From: Escherichia phage vB_EcoM_KAW3E185
Length of the DNA: 64,000 nucleotides
Sequence record: MK373782.1
Reading direction: 5' to 3' (one strand)
The position numbers were made by a program, and so were the translations under genes. Shown here in pieces: positions 923 to 9,352 of this stretch. Within the stretch, counting starts at the first letter, position 1; each line of letters opens with the position of its first letter. Under the pieces are notes generated by a model, which was given only the letters and a program-made list of their open reading frames with translations, was not told the DNA's origin and made no database searches.

Positions 923-1148
923 CTCGGTCCCATGATTTGGCCATTAATCCGGACATAAATTCTTCAATGCGCGTTTCTTTAGATGGACTTTCACTATTAG
1001 AGACCGCAAGTTTGTAATCTGCAATAGGACAGAACATATCAAGGTCCATATTAAGGTCGTCTTTGATTTTTTCTTCTGACACATCTTTATCGTATGTGTA
1101 CAGATAACTATCACATGATTCTGATTTAATGTAAATTGCTATACTCAT
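912..1148 (-). CDS. Hypothetical small protein (start 1148 or 1163)
   Basis: ORF track 912..1163; internal ATG (MSIAIY) has AGGAAT Shine-Dalgarno. Confidence 0.5.
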   Translation of the reverse strand: MSIAIYIKSESCDSYLYTYDKDVSEEKIKDDLNMDLDMFCPIADYKLAVSNSESPSKETRIEEFMSGLMAKSWDRDDE

Positions 1149-1624
1149 CTCAAATTCCTGCATTCGGTAATAAAACGTTCAACTTCATTATTCTTGGCTT
1201 TTATCTTGTCTTTATGTTCTTGTAAACTACTTTTAATAAGATTAATAATGATAGCGACAGTGCCGCCGCCAATGATGCCACCAATAATACTTACGATAGT
1301 AGATGCTAATAAGATAGCAATAATATCAACAAAACCGAAAGAACTCACCTTAGTACTAAAAAACCATACCGATGGTACAAATATAATCCATCCTGCTATC
1401 CATTGGCACTTATTGAAAAACTTTTCAAGATCAGCTTGAGTTGTTCGTATTACTTCATCGATAGGTTGATAACCGTTAATGTATCTGTTCACGATAATAC
1501 CTGCTGGCTGGTCGATTTTAAATTCTTGGCAAATACGTTTAACTAAGTAGGATGGACATCCTGTCCAATCTACTGAATAGTATGAAATACCTTTATTGCC
1601 GTCGTCTATATTATTGTTAATCAT
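1145..1624 (-). CDS. Membrane protein with C-terminal FITECR tail (family A)
   Basis: 159 aa; long hydrophobic segments; ends ERFITECRNLR; GGAAGG Shine-Dalgarno. Confidence 0.65.
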   Translation of the reverse strand: MINNNIDDGNKGISYYSVDWTGCPSYLVKRICQEFKIDQPAGIIVNRYINGYQPIDEVIRTTQADLEKFFNKCQWIAGWIIFVPSVWFFSTKVSSFGFVDIIAILLASTIVSIIGGIIGGGTVAIIINLIKSSLQEHKDKIKAKNNEVERFITECRNLR

Positions 1625-2310
1625 TACCAGCCTTCCATAGGGAATTCCAGATAAACTTGAGCGTTGACACGAATTTCATTGGTAATCTTTTTAACTCGGT
1701 CTGTATTACGAGATACACGTCCGAACCAACGCCATCCATTACTAATTGCACGAGAACCAGTGTGCCATGTTTGCCAATCAAACTGAAGAAGAGTACGGTC
1801 TGGAGCTTCCCATTTCTCTAGTTCACCTTTTTCAATTTTTTCGAGGACTTCTTTGTGCCACTGGCGATAGATAAGTTCGCCATCAGGAATCTGACTGAAC
1901 TCTGCAGTTCCTGTTGCAAAATGAGTAGGACACACATCAGCGTTAACAAGACCAAGAATATGTTCAGAATGGTAACGAGGGTTGTCATAGTCAGGTTGTC
2001 CTGCAGTAATAAAGTGTTGACCAACTGGAATATCAGGGCGAGGAACATCGTCATGGTGGTATCCAGGGATAGCAGGATACCACCCAGGCATCAGCATATG
2101 AACCCGAGAATCAAATACAACATGTTGATTAGTCCAATCAATTGGGAGATTGGCAATAAAGCTACGAGTGATTGAGCCACCATTATCCCAAGCAAAACCC
2201 AAATCACAATTAAAGAACATTGGTTCATTTTTGATTCGGTCATTTTGTACGTTATGTGCAAAACTACCAACTGCACGAGCTTGACTATTAAAAGTTTTAG
2301 AACTATTCAT
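1624..2310 (-). CDS. Hypothetical 228-aa protein, His-rich (possible metal-dependent enzyme)
   Basis: ORF with GAGGAAAA Shine-Dalgarno; motif PGYHHDD and several conserved-looking His/Asp; no TM segments. Confidence 0.6.
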   Translation of the reverse strand: MNSSKTFNSQARAVGSFAHNVQNDRIKNEPMFFNCDLGFAWDNGGSITRSFIANLPIDWTNQHVVFDSRVHMLMPGWYPAIPGYHHDDVPRPDIPVGQHFITAGQPDYDNPRYHSEHILGLVNADVCPTHFATGTAEFSQIPDGELIYRQWHKEVLEKIEKGELEKWEAPDRTLLQFDWQTWHTGSRAISNGWRWFGRVSRNTDRVKKITNEIRVNAQVYLEFPMEGW

Positions 2311-2311
2311 A

Positions 2312-2617
2312 TTATTTTCCTCGACATTCTTTAATGAAATTTTCTAGATTGGTAGATTCAATAGCTTTTTTACGAGCTTCTGCGTGTTCTTCTTCAGACA
2401 ATTTACATTTATAATTGACCCAGACGTTATGGTCGAAACTAGTCGTGGCATATAATAACAATGCTCCAACGAATAGCAAAAACGGCGATAAGAATACAAA
2501 ACCAGGAACACCATCCATACTGTAAGCCTTTTGTAATACTGCAACAGAAAGAGCTGCGTAAAAAAGTGATACAAATATTGTTAAAAGACCAATTCGGTTG
2601 GTTTCGCCTAATTTCAT
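2312..2617 (-). CDS. Two-TM membrane protein with C-terminal ENFIKECR tail (family A)
   Basis: 101 aa; two hydrophobic helices; ends LENFIKECRGK; GAGGAG Shine-Dalgarno. Confidence 0.7.
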   Translation of the reverse strand: MKLGETNRIGLLTIFVSLFYAALSVAVLQKAYSMDGVPGFVFLSPFLLFVGALLLYATTSFDHNVWVNYKCKLSEEEHAEARKKAIESTNLENFIKECRGK

Positions 2618-2626
2618 AATATTCTC

Positions 2627-2668
2627 CTCATGTTTTAATAGGACTACTATAACATAGTCCTATCAGTT
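2627..2668 (-). promoter_or_regulatory. Early promoter with stem-loop (PeSL-like cassette)
   Basis: Minus strand has a -35-like TGTACAAA, 17 bp spacer, TTATAGT -10, inside inverted repeat ATAGGACTA...TAGTCCTAT; approximate coordinates. Confidence 0.5.
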
Positions 2669-2675
2669 TGTACAC

Positions 2676-2876
2676 TTATTTTGACATTTCTTCGATGTCA
2701 CGACGATACCCATCACGAACTTCACGAAGAGCTTCAAGGCCACACATAGGCTCGATACCAGTAATGTGAACTTGATTAATCTGATACTCTACATCTTCTA
2801 ACTGAGCGAAAACATAACGACGTTCTGCTGCACAACCAGGTTTAGCTTTACCGAAACGTTTATTCAAAGTAGTCAT
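2676..2876 (-). CDS. Hypothetical small protein (66 aa from internal ATG)
   Basis: ORF track 2676..2894 begins at a GTG; internal ATG MTTLNKRF has GGAGAT Shine-Dalgarno. Confidence 0.5.
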   Translation of the reverse strand: MTTLNKRFGKAKPGCAAERRYVFAQLEDVEYQINQVHITGIEPMCGLEALREVRDGYRRDIEEMSK

Positions 2877-2902
2877 TTTTATATCTCCATTCACTCATTT
2901 GT

Positions 2903-2947
2903 TTTGATAGGTCTATAGTATCAACAACTACAGACCTTGTAAACTGT
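2903..2947 (-). promoter_or_regulatory. Early promoter with stem-loop (PeSL-like)
   Basis: GTTTACA, 17 bp, TACTAT on minus strand; inverted repeat AGGTCTGTAG...CTATAGACCT spans the -10. Confidence 0.55.
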
Positions 2948-2956
2948 TTTGTGAAA

Positions 2957-3913
2957 TTATTTGAAAGGTTTTACCATATGAAAGTTTTGTTTGAAACGCT
3001 TGACGTAATCGTCGTGTCCTAAGCTTTGGTACATACTTACTACTTTGCTATAATTTTCCCAAGCGAACTCACGGAACCATCCTGATGTGATTGATGTACA
3101 GACCTTTTCAAGGGCCATCATAAAACTATCACGTGGATGGATTTCAAAGTTATTAGGAATCTGAGAACGTTCTAACGCTAGTACACATGATTCTTCGTAT
3201 ACGCCGGCCAATTTGACCATTTCTGGTAATGATTCGAACTTCTCGCGTGAGGTCATGACTTCAGAACCATCTTTCATATAAAATGTATACGCTGGACGGT
3301 CTGTTAGTGCAATGGCTTCGTGAATAGTATCATGATCGTATGTGTAGATGTCATCTTTAAAGAATGCGCTTTTAGAAGTGTCAAGAACCGGGTGAGCATA
3401 ATTCAAAGTTTCTTTCTGGCGTTTCAGCATAATTTCAGTAAGTTCATCGTTCAGTGTAACACCTTTACCACGAAGATACTGAATATGGTTCATAGTCTTT
3501 AAAAAGAATGGATTATTTTTCTTGAAACGATGAGACATCTTAATTGCAAGACATATCTCAGGAGTTGCCCAGTAAAACCCGTTCAAACGGTCTTTAGTCA
3601 AATTTTTCTTGGCGTATTTTAAAAGGTCATAAGAAGACGTGAAATCTTCAGGAGTGAGTTCACCGACTAATTCACGGACATTAGTGATTGCCGGAACAAT
3701 ATATGCTTCAAAATGAGTTTCGCGTCCATTATGGAAGCATTTGAAAACTTGGACATCAGGGTTATCTTGGTGAACATATACACCCATCATTTGATTTTTG
3801 AATGCATTCCAAGAACCTTGGTCCGCAATAAAGTCCCAATCACTATTTTTAATAGCGCTAGAATCAATAAGACCGTGATAGTGAAGTGCACGAGAACCAA
3901 TAACTAACATCAT
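2957..3913 (-). CDS. Hypothetical 318-aa protein with possible nucleotidyltransferase-fold motif
   Basis: N-terminal hhhGS-x17-DWDF resembles the GS...DxD signature of Pol-beta-type nucleotidyltransferases; GAGGAAAA Shine-Dalgarno; assignment is speculative. Confidence 0.6.
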   Translation of the reverse strand: MMLVIGSRALHYHGLIDSSAIKNSDWDFIADQGSWNAFKNQMMGVYVHQDNPDVQVFKCFHNGRETHFEAYIVPAITNVRELVGELTPEDFTSSYDLLKYAKKNLTKDRLNGFYWATPEICLAIKMSHRFKKNNPFFLKTMNHIQYLRGKGVTLNDELTEIMLKRQKETLNYAHPVLDTSKSAFFKDDIYTYDHDTIHEAIALTDRPAYTFYMKDGSEVMTSREKFESLPEMVKLAGVYEESCVLALERSQIPNNFEIHPRDSFMMALEKVCTSITSGWFREFAWENYSKVVSMYQSLGHDDYVKRFKQNFHMVKPFK

Positions 3914-3941
3914 AATATTTTCCTCGGATTAATTCATTAAC

Positions 3942-4193
3942 TTAAATTTCACGACATGCGATATTATATTCATCCCAGAGGTCATCATGTGAAGCCTCTA
4001 CCAATGGAACGATTGTACCGTTTATGTCTTCATTATAAGGGCAAATTGTACAGTGCGCATCTTCGAATCGGATGCCTTTGTGTTCAGATTTTTTATAACG
4101 CATATCGAATATCTTTGCAAACTTTTCACGAGTAATGGTTTTAGCAACCACTTTAGTTCCGATACTTTCGTAATAAATCATTGTGGACTCCAT
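3942..4193 (-). CDS. Hypothetical small protein (C-terminus NIACREI, weak family A resemblance)
   Basis: 83 aa; preceded by a PeSL cassette. Confidence 0.55.
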   Translation of the reverse strand: MESTMIYYESIGTKVVAKTITREKFAKIFDMRYKKSEHKGIRFEDAHCTICPYNEDINGTIVPLVEASHDDLWDEYNIACREI

Positions 4194-4196
4194 TTG

Positions 4197-4246
4197 TTTT
4201 GATAGGACTACTATAACATAGCCCTATCTTGTTGTAAACTGTTTTA
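4197..4246 (-). promoter_or_regulatory. Early promoter with stem-loop (PeSL-like)
   Basis: GTTTACA, 17 bp, TATAGT with inverted repeat ATAGGGCTA/TAGTCCTAT. Confidence 0.55.
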
Positions 4247-4441
4247 GCAAGAATAACTAGATGATACCCAGCCTTGAACAGTGATACTATTGTGGGATAA
4301 TGAGATCGCGTCCTGGAGATTCAGACCTGCGTTATCTTCAATCCATAATGTAACTTCTTCGCGTTCTTCTGTTGCAATTTGGAACAGGTTTTCCAGAGCA
4401 GCTACTGCCGTACGTACAGCACAATCTAATTCACGAGACAT
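4244..4441 (-). CDS. Small protein, C-terminal GWVSSSYSC (family B, paralog 3)
   Basis: 65 aa; AAGGAA Shine-Dalgarno overlaps the stop of the upstream paralog. Confidence 0.65.
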   Translation of the reverse strand: MSRELDCAVRTAVAALENLFQIATEEREEVTLWIEDNAGLNLQDAISLSHNSITVQGWVSSSYSC

Positions 4442-4450
4442 ATTGTTTCC

Positions 4451-4723
4451 TTAGCAAGTGTGAGAAGATGCGACCCAACCACCGGTTTCGAGGCTCAGGT
4501 TGTAGTCGTATTGGTAAACGTCAGCCCATTCAGCATAGCCGTTTTTTGCACAACGTTCAAGATCGGCTTTAAGATGTCCGGGTGAATGATAGGTTCCACC
4601 CATACCATAAGCTGGGTACAAGTTGAATGTTGTGTTTTGTTTATCAGCAATTTCTTTGGCAGCCTCAATAGCTGCATAGATTTTTGCTACAGCTTCAGCC
4701 AGTTCGGTTTGTTCTTTAGACAT
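4451..4723 (-). CDS. Small protein, C-terminal GGWVASSHTC (family B, paralog 2)
   Basis: 90 aa; AAGGAA Shine-Dalgarno; internal similarity to 4733..5038. Confidence 0.65.
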   Translation of the reverse strand: MSKEQTELAEAVAKIYAAIEAAKEIADKQNTTFNLYPAYGMGGTYHSPGHLKADLERCAKNGYAEWADVYQYDYNLSLETGGWVASSHTC

Positions 4724-4732
4724 AATGATTCC

Positions 4733-5038
4733 TTAGCACAACGCAGAAGACGAAACCCAAGCACCTTCAGTAATAACGTATCCATTACCTTCACGCTTAA
4801 CATCGCCGCCATTATTTTCAATTTCATCTTTCATCCACTGGGATACGATTTCACCCTTAGGATAATAAGTACGACCGCTACCATAATCACCTACAGAAAA
4901 TGATACGGCATATTGGTCTGCGATCTTTGTTGCTTCTTCTTCGATACGTTCAGCTTGATTCAGAAGTTTATAAATTGCATCTGAAGCGGATTTGGCATCA
5001 TTAAACTCTGGTACTTTAATTTCAATAATCTTACTCAT
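4733..5038 (-). CDS. Small protein, C-terminal GAWVSSSALC (family B, paralog 1)
   Basis: 101 aa; start ATG overlaps the stop of the upstream gene (AAATGA). Confidence 0.65.
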   Translation of the reverse strand: MSKIIEIKVPEFNDAKSASDAIYKLLNQAERIEEEATKIADQYAVSFSVGDYGSGRTYYPKGEIVSQWMKDEIENNGGDVKREGNGYVITEGAWVSSSALC

Positions 5039-5394
5039 TTTCTACATTCCTTAATAAAGTTTTCGATTGTTTCATTTTCACGTTTAGCTAGAAGTTCATT
5101 ATAACTAATCATTTGAGAAGCGTAAATCTTTTTATTTTTCTTGTTATGGTTTATAAAATCGTAGTAAAAATAGACTACAGTACAAAATGATGCGATGGAT
5201 GCAAAGGCTTGGGTATACCGTAAGTCCTGCCATTGGTCTGTGAATCCACCAGTGTTCCCTATAAATCCTAACACAACGCCGTCAATAAGAAATCCAACTA
5301 ATCCAAAGGCAAATCCCATGCCAATACTCATAATAAAAATTAGAATGTTCTCACCAAGAGAAGGCCATACGGTTAAGAGTTGAGGCTTTTGCAT
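5035..5394 (-). CDS. Two-TM membrane protein with C-terminal ENFIKECRK (family A)
   Basis: 119 aa; two hydrophobic helices; AAGGAA Shine-Dalgarno. Confidence 0.7.
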   Translation of the reverse strand: MQKPQLLTVWPSLGENILIFIMSIGMGFAFGLVGFLIDGVVLGFIGNTGGFTDQWQDLRYTQAFASIASFCTVVYFYYDFINHNKKNKKIYASQMISYNELLAKRENETIENFIKECRK

Positions 5395-5768
5395 CTTATT
5401 TCCTTAACGAATTCCATAGCTTCTTCATATTCATACTTTTTAACAGCCTCGTCATATTGGGCTCTTGCTTTTGCACATTGAATTTTCCATTCACGTACTC
5501 GAGCTCTATAATGACGTCCTTGGTACCAATATCCCACCCAATTAATAGGCATTAATAAAAATGGCACAATAAACGACCCGGCTATAATAAGTAAAAACAC
5601 TGCATCAGACGATATAACTTCACTAGAATCTAAAACAGCTCCTATAATCATAAAGATTAAAAATGCTAAAGCTAAAATAGGGCCAAATAGTACTTCATTT
5701 GGGATTAATTTACGCTTGTATTCATACGCCCAGGGCTTACTTGGTATGTATAGGGTTGGCTTTGACAT
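5373..5768 (-). CDS. Two-TM membrane protein with C-terminal EFVKEIRCK variant tail (family A)
   Basis: ORF track 5373..5798 begins at a TTG; internal ATG MSKPT used; hydrophobic helices. Confidence 0.6.
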   Translation of the reverse strand: MSKPTLYIPSKPWAYEYKRKLIPNEVLFGPILALAFLIFMIIGAVLDSSEVISSDAVFLLIIAGSFIVPFLLMPINWVGYWYQGRHYRARVREWKIQCAKARAQYDEAVKKYEYEEAMEFVKEIRCKSLNS

Positions 5769-6339
5769 ATTCTCTACATTCCATAATAAATTGCTCAAGG
5801 ATTAAATTGTTAGTGAAATTAGGACTAACAACCATGGTTTCATAAAGCGCATCAATAGCACTTAAAGCATCAACTCTTTTAAGCAAAGGCTTGCCTTCAT
5901 ACATAGTTTCAGAATCGACGATTAACGTAAAGTAATATTTTTTATTATCGACTAGAACTTCTGTATCGATATAAAACATATTAGACCTCAGAAGCTTATC
6001 TCTAAAACCATAATAATCTTCTGAACGTTCACTGATATATTCCCATTCAGTGTTTAAACAACAAACAGACCATGTAGGAGCAACGAAATCAGTGAATCTA
6101 ATATCATGGTCTGCAACTAGTTTAGCAATAGCTCCGATATCATGAATCATAATACCTGGGGCTAATAAAGATTTTCTGCTATGGCTAGCCGTTTTCTCAG
6201 TAGTCTCATAAGAAGACGACCAGTACCATTTACGTCCGGTTGCAACATATCGTAATGAATCAACTAAAGACGTAGGTGGATTTACCTTATCTCGGAACTC
6301 TTCGAACATTGAGTCAATATCATTATTTTGGTTTCGCAT
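5737..6339 (-). CDS. Hypothetical 200-aa soluble protein with C-terminal EQFIMECRE motif (family A)
   Basis: ORF track 5737..6360 begins at a TTG; internal ATG MRNQNN has AAAGGAG Shine-Dalgarno. Confidence 0.6.
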   Translation of the reverse strand: MRNQNNDIDSMFEEFRDKVNPPTSLVDSLRYVATGRKWYWSSSYETTEKTASHSRKSLLAPGIMIHDIGAIAKLVADHDIRFTDFVAPTWSVCCLNTEWEYISERSEDYYGFRDKLLRSNMFYIDTEVLVDNKKYYFTLIVDSETMYEGKPLLKRVDALSAIDALYETMVVSPNFTNNLILEQFIMECREYVKANPIHTK

Positions 6340-6356
6340 GTTAACTCCTTTATTAT

Positions 6357-6380
6357 CCAAAAGGAGGACCGGAGTCCTCC
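6357..6380 (-). terminator. Intrinsic terminator hairpin
   Basis: Perfect palindrome GGAGGAC-CGGA-GTCCTCC followed on the minus strand by TTTTGG; approximate coordinates. Confidence 0.55.
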
Positions 6381-6982: not shown

Positions 6983-7052
6983 ATTATTACCTTTCAATTG
7001 GTGGTCTATTATCCAATGAGAGCATTATACTCTGCTCTCAAGAGTTTGTAAA

Positions 7053-7280
7053 TTATTTTTTAATCAAATTGACATAAAACTCGGCGTCTTCTGGGTGCAT
7101 GCCTTCACAGTATTCTTCAACCATGAACTTCTTAACAGCTTCATAAGGACCACTCAGATTAAGCTCAGTTGTCCAGAACTTGGAATCTTGGACCGAATCG
7201 ATACGAACGTCAGGGTGACGGTTGCGAATAACTTCTTCAGTATATTCATAATCAACGACATCAATACTAACTTTAGCCAT
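7053..7280 (-). CDS. Hypothetical small protein
   Basis: 75 aa; GAGGAAAA Shine-Dalgarno. Confidence 0.55.
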   Translation of the reverse strand: MAKVSIDVVDYEYTEEVIRNRHPDVRIDSVQDSKFWTTELNLSGPYEAVKKFMVEEYCEGMHPEDAEFYVNLIKK

Positions 7281-7326
7281 TTTGTTTTCCTCTTGATTTG
7301 ATGTGATTACTATAACATAAACTTAC

Positions 7327-7491
7327 TTAGATGTAAATTATTTCAACGTCACCTTTAGCGGCTTTATAACCTTCAGCCCAAGATACAACAGAGTTTTTAT
7401 CTGAGGATTCAAATTCAGGCATTGGACTTTCACCAATATTCACACAGTATGTTTCTTCATTTTCATCGAACCAAATAATTAAAGTAGTCAT
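7327..7491 (-). CDS. Hypothetical 54-aa protein (below ORF-track cutoff)
   Basis: Hand translation MTTLIIWFDENEETYCVNIGESPMPEFESSDKNSVVSWAEGYKAAKGDVEIIYI; GAGGAG Shine-Dalgarno; own upstream promoter-like cassette. Confidence 0.5.
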   Translation of the reverse strand: MTTLIIWFDENEETYCVNIGESPMPEFESSDKNSVVSWAEGYKAAKGDVEIIYI

Positions 7492-7559
7492 TTTGTTTAC
7501 TCCTCTGTAGTTGATAAGTCTATAGTATCACCATCCTTGGTGCTTGTACATCATTATTT

Positions 7560-7865
7560 TTAATTTTTCCAACTTAACAACTTGTAGTGGCCTTCATTCA
7601 TACGTGGTTTATCCCAAGAAATACTAATATATGATTCACTGTCAATAGAAGTCGCCGGGTTTTTCTCTACCGTAAGACCTTCACTTTCCAGCCATTCAAT
7701 AGTATTTGCACATAAATCAGAAGAACACCTAATCGGAAACCGGCAAGATTTTTCACCTTTAGCTGCAGCGTTATACATCTTTTCTAAAATACGCTTTTGC
7801 ACGTTTTTAAAAATAGTTTCAGCAGATTCTTCGGATTTTTTATTCAGTTCAGTATAAAGACTCAT
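7560..7865 (-). CDS. Hypothetical small protein
   Basis: 101 aa; GAGGAAAA Shine-Dalgarno; PeSL upstream. Confidence 0.55.
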   Translation of the reverse strand: MSLYTELNKKSEESAETIFKNVQKRILEKMYNAAAKGEKSCRFPIRCSSDLCANTIEWLESEGLTVEKNPATSIDSESYISISWDKPRMNEGHYKLLSWKN

Positions 7866-9195: not shown

Positions 9196-9272
<77 letters not shown>

Positions 9273-9275
9273 GAT

Positions 9276-9352
9276 TGGTGACCCAGACCAGATTCGAACT
9301 GGTAACCTTTCCCTTATGAGGGGACTGCTGCTAACCGTTGAGCTACAGGGCC
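9276..9352 (-). tRNA. tRNA with CAU anticodon (Met, or Ile if lysidine-modified)
   Basis: Canonical T-arm ACCAG-TTCGAAT-CTGGT, anticodon loop CTCATAA, encoded CCA; one acceptor mismatch and an imperfect D-stem in my reading. Confidence 0.6.

Follow-up and report, generated by a model that had tools for sequence, protein, structure and literature searches.

A divergent phage-borne protein family with predicted features of Fe(II)/2-oxoglutarate dioxygenases

What kind of protein is encoded by a 228-aa open reading frame (ORF) packed between two membrane protein genes of Escherichia phage vB_EcoM_KAW3E185 (MK373782.1), an RB69-like T-even phage (genus Mosigvirus)? We examined this question in a 64,000-nucleotide stretch of the genome, here called the window, which over its first 6.5 kb shares 98.8% identity with Escherichia phage NicPhage and 97 to 98% with mobillu, JK42, and APCEc01. 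An initial annotation had described a His-rich, possibly metal-dependent protein, reminiscent of enzymes with cupin or 2-oxoglutarate (2OG) oxygenase-like folds. Judging from conserved residues and a predicted structure, we consider it about 80 to 85% probable that the protein functions as an Fe(II)/2OG dioxygenase with catalytic activity. Its family is divergent and uncurated and probably lies nearest the PhyH-like clade.

The gene and its surroundings

The ORF is real: it runs from ATG to TAA behind a ribosome binding site, matches phrog_1843 ("unknown function" in PHROGs) over its full length with an E value of 2e-96, and has many homologues (Table 1). It lies on the minus strand, a point absent from the initial annotation. 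In the sequence, its junction with the upstream gene reads TAA-T-ATG, and its junction with the downstream gene is a TAATG overlap. The promoter candidate, which a consensus scan returned as a pattern match only, precedes three closely packed genes (2617 to 1145). The upstream 101-aa membrane protein gene and the 228-aa ORF are probably cotranscribed, and, given the early-type promoter candidate and the tight gene packing, expression is probably early in infection. No hydrophobic or transmembrane segment was found in the 228-aa sequence, consistent with a soluble protein, and we therefore ruled out a membrane or secreted one.

Table 1. Positions of the features discussed, in window coordinates; residue numbers refer to the 228-aa protein
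Feature	Position	Strand	Description
CDS, 228 aa	1624..2310	-	ATG at 2310 to TAA ending at 1624; phrog_1843; apparent ortholog of RB69 ORF132c
GAGG Shine-Dalgarno	2319..2322	-	8 nt 5′ of the ATG, within the end of the upstream gene; read from the sequence
Upstream co-oriented gene	2312..2617	-	101-aa membrane protein, tail NFIKECRGK; T4 e.2-like, phrog_9798
Downstream gene	1145..1624	-	159-aa membrane protein, phrog_2203; tail RFITECRNLR
Sigma-70 (T4-early-like) promoter candidate	2646..2674	-	TGTACA-17-TATAGT, extended -10 TG; pattern match only
H85-H86-D87 codons	2050..2058	-	HxD half of the predicted iron triad; invariant in alignments of 7, 71, and 115
H183 codon	1762..1764	-	Predicted distal iron ligand, strand VII (E182-185); 100% in 115 representatives
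R194...R198 codons (G-W-R-x-F-x-R)	1717..1731	-	Start of strand VIII; both Arg 100% in 115 representatives
AlphaFold2 strands, first half			E65-73, E77-78, isolated bridge at residue 85, E116-122, E129-138
AlphaFold2 model, rest			Helical insert 147-160, E165-168, E173-178, E182-185, E192-201
Further tail-family ORFs	5035-5394, 5373-5798, 5737-6360	-	F-[IV]-x-E-[CI]-R ends
Tandem ORFs, 65, 90, and 101 aa	4244-4441, 4451-4723, 4733-5038	-	W-V-[AS]-S-S-x-x-C ends
318-aa ORF	2957-3913	-	DUF7277 (E 1e-27) and DUF7275 (3e-79); phrog_2141
tRNA genes, Arg(tct) and Met(cat)	9196-9272 and 9276-9352	-	

The flanking membrane proteins do belong to a family with a C-terminal tail, as had been noted at the outset. 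The tail F-[IV]-x-E-[CI]-R (e.g., "...ENFIKECRK," with a conserved cytoplasmic Cys-Arg) closes five paralogous minus-strand ORFs in the interval from 1145 to 6360; all frames of the 64 kb contain no further instance of it. Strong transmembrane segments are present in four of these ORFs. By position and size, the four at 2312 to 6360 correspond to T4 e.2 to e.5, the first of them being the syntenic equivalent of e.2, and the 159-aa ORF is extra. Three tandem ORFs in the same region, with the tails QGWVSSSYSC, GGWVASSHTC, and GAWVSSSALC, look like a locally amplified paralog family. The 318-aa DUF7277/DUF7275 gene is a conserved accessory insert in the interval equivalent to T4 e.2/e.3. Further along, only two tRNA genes are found at a position where T4 has eight tRNAs, segB, and the small RNAs rnaC and rnaD.

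Together with the 159-aa membrane protein gene, the 228-aa gene forms an accessory insertion in the interval from nudE to e.2; its homologues in T-even phages have nudE about 0.7 kb downstream. T4 has no copy at the syntenic site, where e.2 comes immediately after nudE, and a tblastn search of T4 from 60.5 to 74 kb was empty, so that T4 was dropped as a genetic handle. RB69 appears to carry an ortholog as ORF132c, a name given in the GenBank note for the IME08 ortholog.

Family distribution, conserved residues, and predicted fold

The family is essentially phage borne. Homologues were found by tblastn in 472 of 50,697 phage records, and the T4-like phages among them infect Escherichia, Shigella, Klebsiella, Enterobacter, Citrobacter, Serratia, Yersinia, Edwardsiella, Pectobacterium, and Aeromonas. 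Homologues at 27 to 33% identity occur in Vequintavirinae and in phages of Mycobacterium (Aziz, Bricole), Gordonia (Bachita), and Pseudoalteromonas (H101), and there are relatives in marine phages and rare prophages as well. A word-indexed search gave 1,290 clusters at 90% identity; an exhaustive profile search gave 1,041 clusters at 50% identity, 735 of them with E < 1e-10. Prokaryotic genomes, sampled as one genome for each of 185,579 species, yielded only 26 loci, spread over many phyla and prophage-like. One metagenomic contig of 828 kb (L090) carries a member at 7001-7681 within a type IV pilus/type II secretion cluster (two T2SSE genes, T2SSF, and a prepilin peptidase) with no obvious phage genes close by; this atypical context is possibly a cellular one.

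Existing annotation says little about these proteins. Among the tblastn matches listed, 37 of 40 records have "hypothetical protein" or no feature beneath the match. The three exceptions are a mislabelled "baseplate hub subunit," an e.2 annotation that is also overlapped, and a ribosome-binding-site feature that is also overlapped. Some Aeromonas phage orthologs are automatically named "Phytanoyl-CoA dioxygenase family protein" in UniProt. Pfam gave no match for the 228-aa protein, for distant members, or for longer members. When 115 representatives, drawn from the 1,041 clusters at no more than 50% identity, were scanned with E values up to 10, only faint matches appeared, to HalD (two members, 1e-3), PhyH (PF05721; one member, E 0.05), and AraC_binding (three members); the gathering score of PF05721 was reached neither by that member nor by the 228-aa protein, which had no match to it. 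NCBIfam yielded nothing relevant, and PADLOC defence models matched neither the 228-aa protein nor three distant members. Against PDB sequences, the single sequence and a 71-sequence profile returned noise or nothing, and a 115-sequence profile returned 0 matches.

Conservation within the family is more telling. H85-x-D87, H183, G192-W193-R194, and R198 are common to seven sequences taken across all clades and are invariant in an alignment of 71; across the 115 representatives, the sole invariant columns are H85, D87, H183, R194, and R198. Around them lie the family signatures P-A-I-P-G-[WY]-H-x-D-x-V-P-R, G-W-R-x-F-x-R, and a C-terminal G-W. An HxD...H triad kept at this depth supports the suggestion of a metal-dependent enzyme. 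All four motifs on which that suggestion was based are present in the protein (PGYHHDD at residues 82 to 88, YHSEH at 113 to 117, THF at 129 to 131, and WHK at 151 to 153), but as a metal site only the first has held up. PGYHHDD provides H85 and D87, both found in 100% of the 115 representatives, whereas H114, H130, and H152 of the other clusters are kept in 4%, 3%, and 28%, respectively. H117 of YHSEH is kept in 81%, and T129 and F131, the neighbors of H130, in 93% and 90%. The third predicted ligand, H183 in the motif WHTGS, was missing from the initial list. As for the label "His-rich," the protein has 11 His (4.8%), a moderate content, and Trp is equally abundant (10 residues, 4.4%). Metal binding would depend on a three-residue facial triad, as read from the alignments, and not on His richness.

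In the predicted structure, the strand order assigned by DSSP fits that of a 2OG oxygenase. With the 71-sequence alignment, AlphaFold2 returned a model (pLDDT 92.2, pTM 0.88) in which an N-terminal hairpin and helices are followed by eight strands of a double-stranded beta-helix, or jelly roll. The HxD motif follows strand II, H183 is on strand VII, and R194 and R198 are on strand VIII. 2OG oxygenases canonically have this layout, and an insert separating strands IV and V is likewise usual for them. For a clade about 30% identical to the 228-aa protein, a separate model built from that clade's alignment had pLDDT 94.4 and pTM 0.90 with an unchanged strand order and equivalents at H87-x-D89, H190 (on E190-192), R201, and R205. 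Convergence of the triad on one metal site is inferred from the positions of the strands in the model. The top 50 Foldseek matches were nearly all 2OG oxygenases, led by EvdO2, HygX, ThoJ, MysH, SptF, and GriE, with weak statistics (E about 1.5e-3, TM 0.3 to 0.4). In a viral structure library, the nearest matches were family members and other uncharacterized viral proteins, followed by viral PhyH/2OG oxygenases. Neither of the outcomes that the initial annotation named as refuting its suggestion, a nonenzymatic fold or a lack of conserved His/Asp positions, was obtained.

One arginine bears on the choice between the two fold classes first proposed. In 2OG oxygenases, a basic residue that binds the C5 carboxylate of the cosubstrate lies about 10 residues past the distal His, on strand VIII. 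R194 is 11 residues past H183, at the start of the strand formed by residues 192 to 201, and is predicted to bind the C5 carboxylate of 2OG; R198, the second invariant Arg, may bind cosubstrate or substrate. Because R194 is invariant at the position where 2OG oxygenases hold their cosubstrate binder, we prefer a 2OG oxygenase over a classical cupin. We did not find a two-motif cupin signature with cupin structures as best matches. The invariant Asp ligand indicates hydroxylase/oxidase chemistry of the predicted enzyme, and on the same ground we ruled out a halogenase.

Could the protein be a jelly roll without catalysis, such as a ligand sponge or binder, or else a classical cupin metalloenzyme that does not use 2OG? 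Phage anti-defence sponges are common, and the faint AraC_binding matches in 3 of 115 members are to a cupin family. Nevertheless, we regard this as highly improbable: the triad and R194 show no variation among the 115 representatives of the 1,041 clusters, and the top structural matches are 2OG oxygenases, not cupins. Natural tandem fusions argue the same way. Three metagenomic relatives of double length (P0289, P0329, and P0359; 418 to 462 aa) are self-duplications. The HxD...H...R set survives in copy 1; HxD is gone from copy 2 (e.g., "IPIWRSG"), which retains GWR and the C-terminal GW. That one copy keeps the catalytic set as the other decays implies selection on catalysis. The arrangement also suggests that the tandem forms are pseudo-dimers with one active site and, since their catalytic residues are in copy 1 only, that proteins with a single domain function as dimers. 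Longer members gave no fusion partner as a clue to function, being either such self-duplications or proteins with domain-free N-terminal extensions.

For the preferred reading, an Fe(II)/2OG dioxygenase, one can envision the following course. Fe(II) would be held by H85, D87, and H183; 2OG would chelate the iron, its C5 carboxylate pairing with R194, and T129 and/or R198 may assist. Activation of O2 would then give Fe(IV)=O, which would hydroxylate a C-H bond of the primary substrate, with succinate and CO2 as products. The substrate may be gripped by residues whose conservation is specific to the family: R91, R198, R214, W84, W193, Y148, Y220, and the C-terminal G227-W228. The enzyme is probably a homodimer that needs no dedicated partner protein; among dereplicated loci, no obligate partner or conserved operon gene was found.

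Gene neighbourhoods and the possible substrate

What such an enzyme would act on can be approached through its conserved residues and its neighbors. Residues R91, R198, R214, W84, W193, Y148, Y220, and W228 are well conserved beyond the Fe/2OG site. Two sets of dereplicated loci were examined, and the figures given are raw counts. In 40 loci with targets less than 65% identical, the three ORFs on either side included DnaB (4), NAMPT (4), NUDIX (3), RNA ligase (2), ADP-ribosylglycohydrolase (2), metallophosphoesterase (2), and HAD_SAK_2 (1). NAMPT lay within 6 kb in 7 of these 40 loci, adjoining the target in two (L005 and L070) and close to it in L056 and L074. The second set, of 34 loci with targets less than 60% identical and with an actino-type clade added, gave NAMPT (6), Macro (4), dCMP deaminase (4), primase-helicase (4), DNA ligase (3), NMNAT-Nudix (2), and ADP-ribosylglycohydrolase (2). 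PRPP synthetase is another recurrent neighbor, and the T4 annotation credits the nudE product, a Nudix hydrolase, with activity on ADP-ribose, NADH, FAD, and ApnA.

RNA repair genes recur as well. Mycobacterium and Gordonia phages have RtcB 1 to 2 kb upstream, lineages beyond the actinophages also have RtcB or RNA ligases near family members, and one prophage-like locus has an RNA ligase, RNase T, and a NUDIX gene as neighbors. Linkage to NAD, ADP-ribose, or RNA repair genes is a minority pattern, seen in about 15 to 25% of loci, and may in part be inherited synteny, since NAMPT is upstream and on the same strand in most such loci. It is not purely so, given the unlike gene order of a contig binned to the genome of an uncultured Methanosarcinales archaeon (L114, 6001-10349). 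There, the target is followed in order by an ADP-ribosylglycohydrolase, a NAMPT-like gene, and an FAD-dependent oxidoreductase, the tightest grouping of NAD/ADP-ribose genes observed around any member.

The linked genes point weakly to nucleotide, ribose, NAD-ADP-ribose, or RNA-end chemistry. Our tentative guess, which we hold to be possible but doubtful, is a small anionic molecule containing ribose or a nucleotide, from NAD+/ADP-ribose or RNA-end metabolism, whose oxidation would serve host takeover or counter-defence. It is a good deal more speculative, and in our judgment unlikely, that a stand-alone dioxygenase destroying or altering an NAD+/ADP-ribose-derived molecule represents a new class of counter-defence or takeover enzyme. 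Its targets could then be a TIR/Thoeris-type signalling nucleotide, an ADP-ribosyl adduct, or a damaged RNA end, and NAMPT, NMNAT-Nudix, Macro, ADP-ribosylglycohydrolase, and NudE could be its partners, through a linkage that is recurrent and not obligate. A survey of viral NAD-ADP-ribose functions mentions no oxygenase (PMC9503650). One version of this idea, an oxidative de-ADP-ribosylase acting against DarT1, is disfavoured: RB69 is highly sensitive to DarTG1 (PMC11825919) and yet apparently has the ortholog, which speaks against removal of DarT1 adducts.

Another candidate is an AlkB-like oxygenase for the oxidative repair or erasure of RNA, tRNA, or DNA bases, one that would work beside phage RNA repair enzymes. 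We think this improbable, though worth keeping in mind. AlkB-like genes occur in jumbo phages (PMC7824862). In contrast to AlkB demethylases, this family shows no sign of a nucleotide-recognition lid, and no 2OG-FeII_Oxy_2 match was obtained for the 228-aa protein or the 115 representatives. Alignment of the family profile to E. coli AlkB by hhalign gave a probability of 0.3%, an uninformative value, as a single template sequence is too weak for this comparison.

A protein substrate is the next alternative, and we rate it as unlikely. Prolyl hydroxylases and ribosomal oxygenases modify proteins in this manner, and a host or phage protein, such as a translation factor or ribosomal protein, might be hydroxylated here. 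However, structural matches of that kind rank under small-molecule PhyH-like enzymes, gene context offers no support, and a host range from Gram-negative bacteria to actinobacteria and Bacillales would need a universally conserved target.

Finally, the enzyme might serve as a metabolic sink, turning 2OG into succinate and so rewiring host carbon/nitrogen signalling. Such a role was proposed for PhyH-like core genes of T4-like cyanophages (PMC3037559), and viral PhyH-like proteins are remote structural neighbors of the family. Still, the cyanophage proteins are only remotely related (E 4e-3 to 1e-2), and the strongly conserved residues outside the Fe/2OG site argue for a specific prime substrate; we give the sink very little credence.

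Comparison with known oxygenases and implications

The enzyme class is a known one; the family itself is a new, uncurated phage family, for which our literature search, covering phage oxygenases, RB69 ORF132c, and links to NAMPT and Thoeris, found no describing paper. Listed closest to it are the PhyH-like enzymes (phytanoyl-CoA hydroxylase, EctD, EasH, proline hydroxylase H11, AusE, and EvdO2/HygX). It differs from them in having no significant sequence-profile match, in being shorter (about 225 aa, compared to 250 to 290), in its own signatures (PAIPGWHxDxVPR, GWRxFxR, and the C-terminal GW), and in being almost exclusively phage borne.

By the tests run here, the family is distinct from cyanophage, AlkB-like, and TET/JBP-type phage oxygenases. 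With the PhyH-like/2OG-Fe(II) genes of cyanophages it would share a place among the oxygenases, accessory or core, of T4-like myoviruses (PMC3037559). The superfamily fold is common to both, at a remote level only (Foldseek E 4e-3 to 1e-2), whereas the present family occurs in phages of enterobacteria, Aeromonas, actinobacteria, and marine heterotrophs and is invisible to Pfam. Phage 5-methylpyrimidine dioxygenases of the TET/JBP type (PMC13229309) would likewise have in common with it that they are phage-encoded Fe/2OG dioxygenases. Among the fold neighbors and gene neighbourhoods of the family, we did not find TET/JBP-type folds combined with linkage to DNA modification genes.

Our findings provide a testable biochemical identity for a gene present in 472 phage records and mostly called "hypothetical protein" (37 of 40 among the matches listed). 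These records include RB69-like, Klebsiella, Aeromonas, Mycobacterium, and Gordonia phages, and some such phages are in use for therapy or belong to teaching collections. Although over 1,000 clusters at 50% identity make up the family, Pfam, NCBIfam, and PHROGs offer no function for it. The residues named here, H85, D87, H183, and R194, permit the design of mutants. The protein may prove to be one further orphan 2OG oxygenase; if instead its substrate is of the NAD/ADP-ribose type or RNA, oxidative chemistry would join the repertoire of phage-host conflict.
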